DNA of 64,000 nucleotides from positions 32,001-96,000 of IMG/VR virus record IMGVR_UViG_651053023_000001; one strand, 5' to 3'. This document shows positions 1-3,000 of this stretch, one piece after another (within the stretch, counting starts at the first letter, position 1; every line of letters begins with the position of its first letter). The position numbers are program-made. Source of the stretch: a virus. Its lineage: Duplodnaviria; Heunggongvirae; Uroviricota; Caudoviricetes.

Positions 1-3000
1 GAGGAACAAAAGAACTTTCAGCCTGATACGTTGAAAATGGTCTATGACCACAACAACGTTATTATTTGTATTGAAAAGGATGTTTCAGCAATTAATCCAG
101 AAGGCGCAAGCGTCGTTGAGGTTCCTGATATTACAGCAAATCGCCGGGCTGATATTTCTGGTAAATGGATGTTCAAAGATGGCGTAGTGATAAAGCGAAC
201 TTATACCGAGGAGGAACAGAGGCAGCAGGCAGAGAATGAAAAGCAAAGCCTGTTGCAACTTGTCAGGGATAAAACCCAGCTATGGGACTCACAGCTACGG
301 CTGGGCATCATTTCCGACAAGAATAAACAAAAATTAACCGAGTGGATGCTCTATGCGCAGAAAGTCGAATCTACAGACACCTCCAGCCTGCCAGTAACAT
401 TTCCCGAACAACCTGAATGAGACAAGGCCCGATAGCGGGCCTTAATTTTTATTCAGGCTTTTGTGGCCATTCAGGATTTGCCGTATCCACACGGCTGACC
501 AGAACACTGTAGCGTTCCCATGCTTCCAGTCGTGTGCGTTCCTCGTCTGTTGCCATATTCAACCTGACAGCGCGTTCCAGCGGCTGGATGACTGATTCAG
601 CTTCGGAAAGCAATGCGGCCTTTTGTGATTCGGCTTGTTGTTGCTGTTCGTCTGCCGTATAAATCCGTTTAACTACAGATCCATCCTTAAACATCCACTT
701 CCCTGAATCATCGGCACGACGATTGGCTGTTATATCTGGAATCTCAACGACACTAAAGCCTTCGGGATTAAGCGTTGAGGCATCTTTGGTTATGGCAACA
801 ATAATATTATTTTCGTCGTATACAATCTTTATGGTGTCGTCCTGAAAGTTATTTACTTCCTCATACCAGTTTTTACCGTCTTCGGACCATAACCAGATAA
901 CATCAAAATTCTTTGTTAGCTGATATTGTTCTTTCGTTTTAGGATTTCCAGACTTAATATTTTTTAAATGCTGCATAATTTACACCTGTGCTACGTTATA
1001 CCATGTGCCATTGATGTATTTTTGTATTGGTCTGAAGATGGCTTCATCATCGCCATCTACTTCACCAATGATTCTTAATCCGGTAATTGCGTGTCCGGCT
1101 TTTTCATAACGACCACCACGCGCCATCAATTGAACAACACGCGTACCCAGGCGAACATCTTTCACATAGCGTGAGTCAAAATTGCCATAATTTCCGGGAA
1201 TAATTTGCGCACCGCAAAGCCAGTTACCGTTATTGTCCATGTACGCCTGACCATCGGTGCCATTGGCTGTCCTTGAGTTATTAATCATGTAGATGCCAAA
1301 TTGCTTATTTCCCAGACCGCCAATCATAAATTTGCGGTCGGCATGGTCCTGACGGAGCAAGGCCTGAGCACCATCAGTGGATACCGCATTACGTCCCATA
1401 ATAACGTTCTGGTCACGCATATTAATCCACATGCCTGTACTGCTGTTAATAGCAAAACGGTCTGAAAGTGTCTCCCCTGAAACATTAAGGCCACGCCCCA
1501 TCGAAACAGCGCCAGTAGCGTTATTAATCCATAATGGCCTTAATCCGTTATAAGTCCCCATGTTGTCACCGGAGTTTGTCAACATGAAGTATGTATTTGA
1601 ACCATCATTACGAATAAAGAATCCGTAATTACCATAAGCAATACGTAGGCCGTTTGCTGATTTTGATATGACTTCGCCATTTACAATGGCATTGACAAGA
1701 ACATACAAAGCATCCCATTTAAGATTCATCAGGTCTTTTGTTGTGGTGCTTTGTTTGCTTCTCCATTTGAAATATTCATTGCCGTTGTCGCCTGTTTCAA
1801 ACCACATGTATGAATCAGTGTCACCATCAGCATCATTTTTAAATCCAATCTTCGCCCAGTCAGTATTTCGAATCCAGGCAAGGATTGAGTCATTTTTAAA
1901 AGTAAGCCCACCGGACAAAGTATCGCCTGAACGCTGAACGGCATTATTTGCTTTATTAATAAATTCCTGTAGATTTAAATCTTCCGCCGTTAGCTCAATA
2001 TTTTTAGAACCATCAAACGAGACCCCATTTATAGTTCGAGCGGTTTGTAACTTGGTCGCTGTCGCTGCATTACCGGTTGTGTTCTGATTACCTGTTTTAT
2101 TCACGCCCGGCAGGTCGATGTTTGCGGTGCCATTAAATGAAACACCACCAATAGTTCTTGCCGTTTGTAATTTCGTTGCAGACGCCGCGTTTCCGGTTGT
2201 GTTCTGGTTGCCCGTGGTATTTACACCAGGGATGGAATCCTTCGATGTGTAGACCTGCGCCCACTCTGACCAACTGGCTGTATCAGTATCTCGTCGCGAA
2301 CGTACATGTACAGGTGCATGAGCGCCACTTGTACCGCTCCAACCTATGAACAACTCACCTTCACCAACTGCCGTTGCGCCCTTAAGATGAAGCACATTCC
2401 CGTAAGCAGAAGGATAGCCGTTGTTGTACGCCTCATACATTTGCAATCCAGTAGCAGCACCTTGTGTTGTACCGGTGAGCGCAGTAACACGCCCTCTGGA
2501 CGTAATTGTTGGTATCGAAATGTCCACAGAACCATCAAATTTAACACCGTTGATGTTTCTTGCCGTCGCAAGTTTCGTCGCGGTAGCAGCATTCCCCGTG
2601 GTGTTCTGGTTACCTGTTGTATTTACACCTGGAAGATTGATATTGGCCGAGCCATCAAATGCCACACCGCCAATCGAGCGTGCTGTTTTCAATTTCGTCG
2701 CGGTGTCGGCATTCCCTGCCAGCGCCCCGGTGATCCCGCCGTTGAAAGTCTGGCGTGAACTCCATGTGTTAGCCGTGCTCAACAGGGGGATCTTTTCACC
2801 GCTGGTACCGAGTTCTCTTAAACCAAGGTATTGGATAACAGCAAGAACGCTTGTTTTGGCCAGAATATCGCGACCAACTGACGTTAAGTCAGTCTGAGAA
2901 ACAGTGTCTGTACCGGTAAAGTACGGCAATTTATTTGCGCCTGTCGCAAGACCAGCAAGCGCGGTTAAAGTTGCATCAAGTGGCTGTTTCCCTGCCAGCG

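Follow-up and report, generated by a model that had tools for sequence, protein, structure and literature searches.

Since the early 1980s it has been known that Cin inverts the C segment of phage P1 at the cix sites, a textbook case of a host-range switch. Flagellar phase variation in Salmonella by Hin acting at hix involves a recombinase of the same family and sites with the same 26-bp architecture, and p15B, a relative of P1, carries a shufflon-like tail-fibre system with several sites. In P1, the DNA bounded by cixL and cixR is inverted by Cin and Sv′/U′ take the place of Sv/U, whereby the host range is changed (Iida et al. 1982, PMC553230, as cited in a passage of PMC6906374). The P1 inversion and the accompanying change of host range are also summarised in bioRxiv 10.1101/2022.07.24.501295. 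According to the P1 annotation the inversion enhancer, which is Fis-dependent in systems of this type, is located within the 5′ part of cin.

We analyzed a stretch of 64 kb from a tailed-phage record (64,000 nucleotides, positions 32,001 to 96,000 of IMGVR_UViG_651053023_000001), which is called the window below. Its first 2825 positions very probably represent the right-hand ~2.8 kb of a P1-like C segment in the C(+) orientation, with cixL, Sv′ and an intact cin expected upstream and with the segment presumably able to flip.

Genomic context

A megablast search against phage records matched the leftmost region of the window to phage P1. Window and P1 are collinear over positions 1–11000, with the gene order U′, U, S, R, gp16, bplA, pmgA and sit. 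The DNA identity is 91% between window 1–2110 and P1 33899–36008 and 97% for window 2682–8762, with about 98% in the sub-stretch 2682–4300. The Punavirus MH422554, obtained from human infant faeces, is collinear with all 64 kb at 96–99% identity, the collinearity being interrupted by IS insertions and by a small number of variable regions. Judged from this genome-scale collinearity, in which the modules for tail, baseplate, plasmid partition/replication and lysis control are included, the 64-kb element is a member of Punavirus, i.e., a P1-like phage-plasmid, and the tail-fibre locus described below is useful in anchoring the window as such an element.

When compared with MH422554 the window contains two insertions, one of 1.8 kb (29702–31523) and one of 4.9 kb (50756–55625). 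The larger one is an IS cluster resembling a composite transposon. Its two IS3-family copies are 100% identical in their initial 300 nt, carry the terminal inverted repeat TGAACCGCCCCGG… and have ends that we take to resemble IS629; between both copies there are remnants of IS66-family and Mu/IS21-like transposase genes. The plasmid replication region (26664–28247) is unlike the one of MH422554, and a variable region at 57026–59970, with two Ead/Ea22-like genes (57511–58248 and 59242–59997), is unmatched there. The individual features outside of the tail-fibre locus are:

27119–27979, minus strand: Rep3-type initiator gene, 286 aa, in a stretch without megablast match in MH422554
29796–31169, minus strand: IS91-family transposase gene, 457 aa, with Y2_Tnp and Zn_Tnp_IS91 domains, inside the 1.8-kb insertion
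36282–36435 and 37867–37942, plus strand: three tRNA genes, Asn-GTT, Thr-TGT and Met-CAT
~50759–52061 and 54318–55627: IS3-family element in two direct copies, each with HTH_Tnp_1 and rve open reading frames

The tape-measure/transglycosylase gene sit (7333–11028) codes for 1231 aa compared with 1140 aa in P1 and MH422554, and is divergent from P1 at 8390–9529 (85%). A direct-repeat search revealed that sit contains a 212-nt direct repeat (10418–10629 and 10715–10926, 84% identical, 297 nt apart) which duplicates about 99 codons near the N-terminus; Tandem Repeats Finder reported no repeat in sit. If Sit is the tail ruler, the tail length could differ.

The tail-fibre locus

The left end of the window is organized as follows:

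1–420, plus strand: U′, alternative tail-fibre assembly chaperone, 5′-truncated at the window edge (codons 39–177 and stop)
424–443, plus strand: GC-rich hairpin with a T-run behind it, in the gap that separates U′ from U, 8-pair stem with 6 GC pairs (consensus scan)
449–976, minus strand: U, tail-fibre assembly chaperone, open reading frame of 175 aa, Caudo_TAP with E 5e-37
980–4186, minus strand: S, tail fibre, 1068 aa; the full open reading frame is 980–4273, and the start equivalent to that of P1 is the ATG at 4186
980–2825, minus strand: Sv, variable C-terminal exon of S (aa 455/456–1068), inside the putative invertible segment
2682–2836, no strand assigned: segment-internal end repeat, whose inverted copy adjoins cixL and cin in relatives
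2813–2838, plus strand: cixR crossover site TTCTCTTAAACCAAGGTATTGGATAA, two 12-bp half-sites around a central AA
2826–4186, minus strand: Sc, constant N-terminal part of S (aa 1–454/455) with Phage_fiber_2 repeats, outside the putative invertible segment
4198–4632, minus strand: R, first gene of the R-S-U tail-fibre operon, open reading frame of 144 aa, collinear with P1 R
4663–4681, minus strand: late promoter LPs with −22 box AAGTTACTT and −10 box TACAAT, outside the putative invertible segment

The genes, the site and the reading frame are confirmed at these coordinates. The original prediction had started from two convergent tail-fibre assembly genes, and this arrangement is indeed present: U and U′ both contain the Pfam domain Caudo_TAP (E 6e-37 for the U′ frame 1–420) and match U and U′ of P1, with 170/175 identical residues for U and 131/139 for U′, the latter being collinear with P1 33899–34318. 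U′ is also identical in all 139 residues to U′ of Mu-like prophages, and the exact U protein is encoded as well by inversion cassettes of Mu-like and lambdoid prophages. The hairpin between the two genes may act as a terminator, as suggested by its match to the consensus.

S can be aligned end to end with the S protein of P1 (987 aa). It contains Phage_fiber_2 repeats and a Gp34_trimer domain at aa 777–887, and the Sc part shares 98.3% DNA identity with P1 Sc. The frame runs without interruption from 4186 to 980 across the 26-mer, which encodes V-I-Q-Y-L-G-L-R-E (aa 450–458), so that the predicted in-frame fusion over the site holds. Upstream of R the LPs sequence agrees with the annotated P1 LPs in both boxes, with one mismatch in the spacer. 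By analogy with P1 this promoter would drive R and Sc together with whichever Sv/U set is joined to them. The proposal that the orientation present is the one expressing the Sv/U pair is supported as well, since it corresponds to the C(+) configuration of P1. For annotators this means that S as found here is one of two alternative products.

The 26-bp sequence inside S, originally noticed for its resemblance to Hin/Gin/Cin sites, is identical at 26 of 26 positions to the annotated P1 cixR, lies at the homologous position in S and has identical flanks. The P1 annotation of cixR corresponds to window 2816–2835 and the P1 crossover point to 2825/2826, i.e., the central AA. When up to three mismatches are allowed on both strands the 26-mer occurs once in 64 kb, with an expectation of 0 from 100 shuffles. 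The end repeat that reaches into the site matches the cixR side of P1 (L001 6939–7093) and recurs as inverted copies on the cixL side of P1 (L001 2970–2816, 95.5%) and in the MH422554 locus (L002 4222–4071, 96.7%).

We thus find several characteristics of a P1-type Cin/cix system: a 26-bp crossover site, made up of two imperfect inverted 12-bp half-sites around a 2-bp core, at the Sc/Sv boundary of S, two chaperone genes in opposed orientation within the segment, a promoter and a constant N-terminal exon outside of it, and an in-frame fusion over the site. The assignment to a Hin/Gin/Cin-type invertible tail-fibre segment is thereby borne out, and synteny and the exact cixR identify it as the C segment of P1. 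The description of everything left of 2838 as one arm has to be modified. This DNA does belong to the segment, but it is the segment interior, with Sv, U and most of U′, and not an arm; about 2.8 kb are visible compared with 4.26 kb for the whole segment in P1.

The window begins inside U′, and no second cix-like site was found in the 64 kb, neither with the 26-mer at up to three mismatches nor with the relaxed core AAACCNNGGTTT. A tblastn search of the 64 kb with P1 Cin did not yield a homologue (best E 4.4); the expected location of the gene is left of the window. Counted leftwards from the P1 base corresponding to window position 1, the P1 annotation has cixL at a distance of 1.67 kb and the start of cin at 2.24 kb. 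Synteny thus predicts that cixL, cin and Sv′, the latter as an inverted alternative fibre C-terminus with no start of its own, are situated to the left of the window.

If the locus works as in P1, transcription would start at LPs outside of the segment and proceed through R and Sc (4186–2826), in frame over cixR (2813–2838), into Sv (2825–980) and U (976–449), and U′, which points in the opposite direction, would be silent in the present orientation. Some 2–3 kb left of the window one would expect the gene for the serine invertase Cin, beside a partner site cixL in inverted orientation. Cin would bring the two cix sites together and cleave them at the central 2 bp, and the complete segment would thereby be inverted. 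Sc would then continue into Sv′-U′, and the progeny would have a different receptor-binding tip and host range.

Relatives with a complete switch

In P1, MH422554, the plasmids CP057172 and CP057418 and in five IMG/VR contigs whose U and U′ genes are convergent, the order Sv′-cixL-cin is found at the expected place. MH422554, which is 98.3% identical over window 2010–4300, has cin, cixL (L002 4069–4094) and cixR, and its invertase gene ends at the inverted copy of window 2685–2836.

The IncY plasmids CP057172 (pRHB34-C14_2) and CP057418 (pRHB27-C18_2) stem from one farm study and are 99.8–99.9% identical. Between them a 4.6-kb segment is found in opposite orientations relative to its flanks. 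One of these sibling plasmids has the sites TTCTCTTAAACCAAGGTATTGGATAA and, on the opposite strand, CAATCCTAAACCTTGGTTTAAGAGAA. The outer half-sites GGTATTGGATAA and GGTTTAGGATTG are reciprocally swapped between the segment ends of the two plasmids, and therefore recombination took place inside the 26-mer itself. The same cix site thus recombines in close relatives of the element, and these relatives support a live switch.

With Sc as query, 25 P1-like loci carrying Sc were collected from IMG/VR. The 26-mer is exact in 22 of them, has one mismatch in two and is cut by the contig end in the remaining one. Among the loci with enough downstream sequence the complete arrangement Sv-U, U′-Sv′-cixL-cin-lydC is seen in L017, L021, L022, L034 and L035. 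All P1-like IMG/VR loci with convergent U/U′ (5/5) possess Sv′, cixL and a Cin of 186 aa that is 98–100% identical to P1 Cin.

Six P1-like viral contigs (L019, L023, L024, L025, L028 and L033) end 6–113 bp past the cix crossover point. Assemblers break contigs at invertible or inverted-repeat junctions, and the six ends have the appearance of such breaks, located at the invertible segment or at its inverted repeats. For those who assemble such genomes it is useful to know that contigs often break at the cix site.

Alternative explanations

The main rival to a functional C segment is a frozen switch. In this case a deletion, truncation or interruption upstream of the window would have affected cin, cixL or Sv′ and left the element locked in S/U, and the 26-mer would be kept only for coding conserved residues of S. 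Eight P1-like IMG/VR loci (among those with enough downstream sequence) show what this may look like, as lydA is reached from S with no intact cin in between: the gene is absent in L026, L037, L038, L061, L074 and L058 and reduced to a stub of 49 aa in L030 and L031. All eight keep the 26-mer, seven exactly and L058 with one mismatch, with cixR at locus position ~10349 (6034 in L031). A single chaperone gene comes after S in these loci, and the sites appear to be relics in locked tail-fibre genes; L038 has, in addition to the chaperone gene, a hexapeptide acetyltransferase-like gene after S, and L058 retains only residues 77–177 of U′, abutting lydA. A truncated cin also occurs in some P1-like plasmids according to a passage of PMC6906374, and RCS47 has an annotation ‘cin part 2’, i.e., a truncated cin. 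Since the window carries several IS elements, damage mediated by them would be plausible. Because the eight contigs without an intact cin retain the 26-mer, a cix site alone proves nothing. The cixR sequence can be a relic, it is weaker evidence than the original prediction assumed, and it should not by itself be scored as a live phase-variation switch. What separates the two classes is the convergent, intact U/U′ pair. It is found in none of the eight loci without an intact cin (0/8), whereas cin is present in every examined P1-like relative with such a pair. The window has this pair, with U′ being intact over its visible part (codon 39 to stop) and identical in 139/139 residues to functional-looking homologues, and therefore belongs to the complete class. 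In addition, the Mu-like and lambdoid cassettes with the identical U have a full Resolvase/HTH_7 gene beside the cassette in 9/10 cases among the matches listed. We consider a frozen switch unlikely on these grounds, and a functional C segment is the preferred reading.

Much less probable still is an inversion system with multiple sites, as in Min of p15B. In the left part one would then expect at least two alternative Sv cassettes and at least three crossover sites, and the number of fibre variants would exceed two. Tail-fibre systems with several sites do exist in p15B, homologies to p15B are annotated in the P1 record, and the length of the C segment varies, the distance between cixR and cixL ranging from 3.4 to 5.4 kb in L021 and L017. 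On the other side, just one cix-like site is present within the visible 2.8 kb of the segment, and the number of sites is exactly two in each complete relative examined. A chance resemblance, with the 26-mer being no recombination site and the convergent chaperone genes an unrelated arrangement, has in its favour that the partner site is outside of the view and nothing further. It is ruled out by the full match to P1 cixR, which is located at the corresponding codon in an Sc of 98% identity, by the expectation of 0 and by the reciprocal half-site exchange at the 26-mer in the sibling plasmids.

The Sv allele

The Sv part is 81 aa longer than that of P1 because a unit of about 40 aa, TGNxxTTGNAATATKLxTARxIxGVxFDGSxNIxLP, is present four times and not twice. 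The units are arranged as two pairs flanking a conserved central domain, and the additional copies are reflected in a 189-nt direct repeat (2006–2194 and 2528–2716). Blastn comparison revealed Sv to be a mosaic. Positions 2010–2825 are of the MH422554 type (98%), and positions 980–2110, which hold the Gp34_trimer domain and the tip, are of the P1/Mu type; the changeover between the two sources falls in the last repeat unit. Mosaicism is typical of tail-fibre genes and leaves the interpretation as a C segment unchanged.

No near-identical counterpart of window 1–4300 or 1–2825 was detected in phage, plasmid and complete E. coli genome records, the best matches having 94–97% identity at 74–89% coverage. 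No protein on record is identical to S, whether the 1068-aa or the 1097-aa start is taken, and the 151 nt around the mosaic junction (1985–2135) were not matched exactly by any contig of the genome, viral and metagenome collections. The locus could thus represent an unrecorded allele, in which a proximal Sv of the MH422554 type with four repeats is placed on a P1/Mu-type tip and is combined with U and U′ identical to those of Mu-like prophages. Its host range might then differ from those of both parents, and to the left there might be a Sv′ that is just as new, or several cassettes; as a whole we regard this proposal as tentative and rather doubtful.

Comparison with known systems

The closest described counterpart is the C segment of phage P1 (AF234173 / NC_005856). 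It shares with the window the gene order U′-U-Sv-cixR-Sc-R-LPs, the identical 26-mer with the crossover in the same codon of S, and the similarity of Sc (98%) and U (170/175), and it has the same neighbours 16, bplA, pmgA and sit. It differs in the length of S, which is 1068 aa in the window and 987 aa in P1, and in positions 2110–2682, which are only ~71% like P1. MH422554 is collinear throughout the window and has both sites and cin, but it has another Sv tip and other chaperones, and window 1–2009 has no megablast match there. In the IncY plasmids the reverse is found: the U′/U/Sv tip is 94% identical to the window and the proximal Sv is different.

The G segment of Mu (Gin/gix) and the lambdoid cassettes also comprise a constant S and two inverted sets of Sv and chaperone, with a serine invertase next to them. 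Mu-like prophages encode U and U′ proteins that are 100% identical to those of the window, and the DNA of window 1–1464 is 95.5% identical. However, the sites of these cassettes are of the gix type, TTCCTGTAAACCGAGGTTTTGGATAA, with the core GA, and their constant part and tail genes are of the Mu or lambda type and not of the P1 type. Since the gix sites differ from the window site at 5–7 positions, the switch of the window is of the P1 (cix) type. Membership in the Mu G segment was rejected, as the site is cix-type and both the constant part and the neighbouring genes are of the P1 type; what the window has in common with it is confined to U, U′ and the Sv tip. Among the loci with the exact U the cassette is fused to S in some and detached in others. 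Two pairs of these prophages (L003 and L005, L004 and L009) display both orientation states with the outer gix half-sites reciprocally exchanged; the cassette of L009 is probably locked because only a resolvase fragment of 64 aa is left. The Hin system is different in that it flips a promoter and not alternative 3′ exons of a fibre gene.

To sum up, the C-segment switch with a site identical to that of P1 is already known, and only the mosaic Sv allele is new. The finding is correct but ordinary, because it is the well-known host-range switch of P1.
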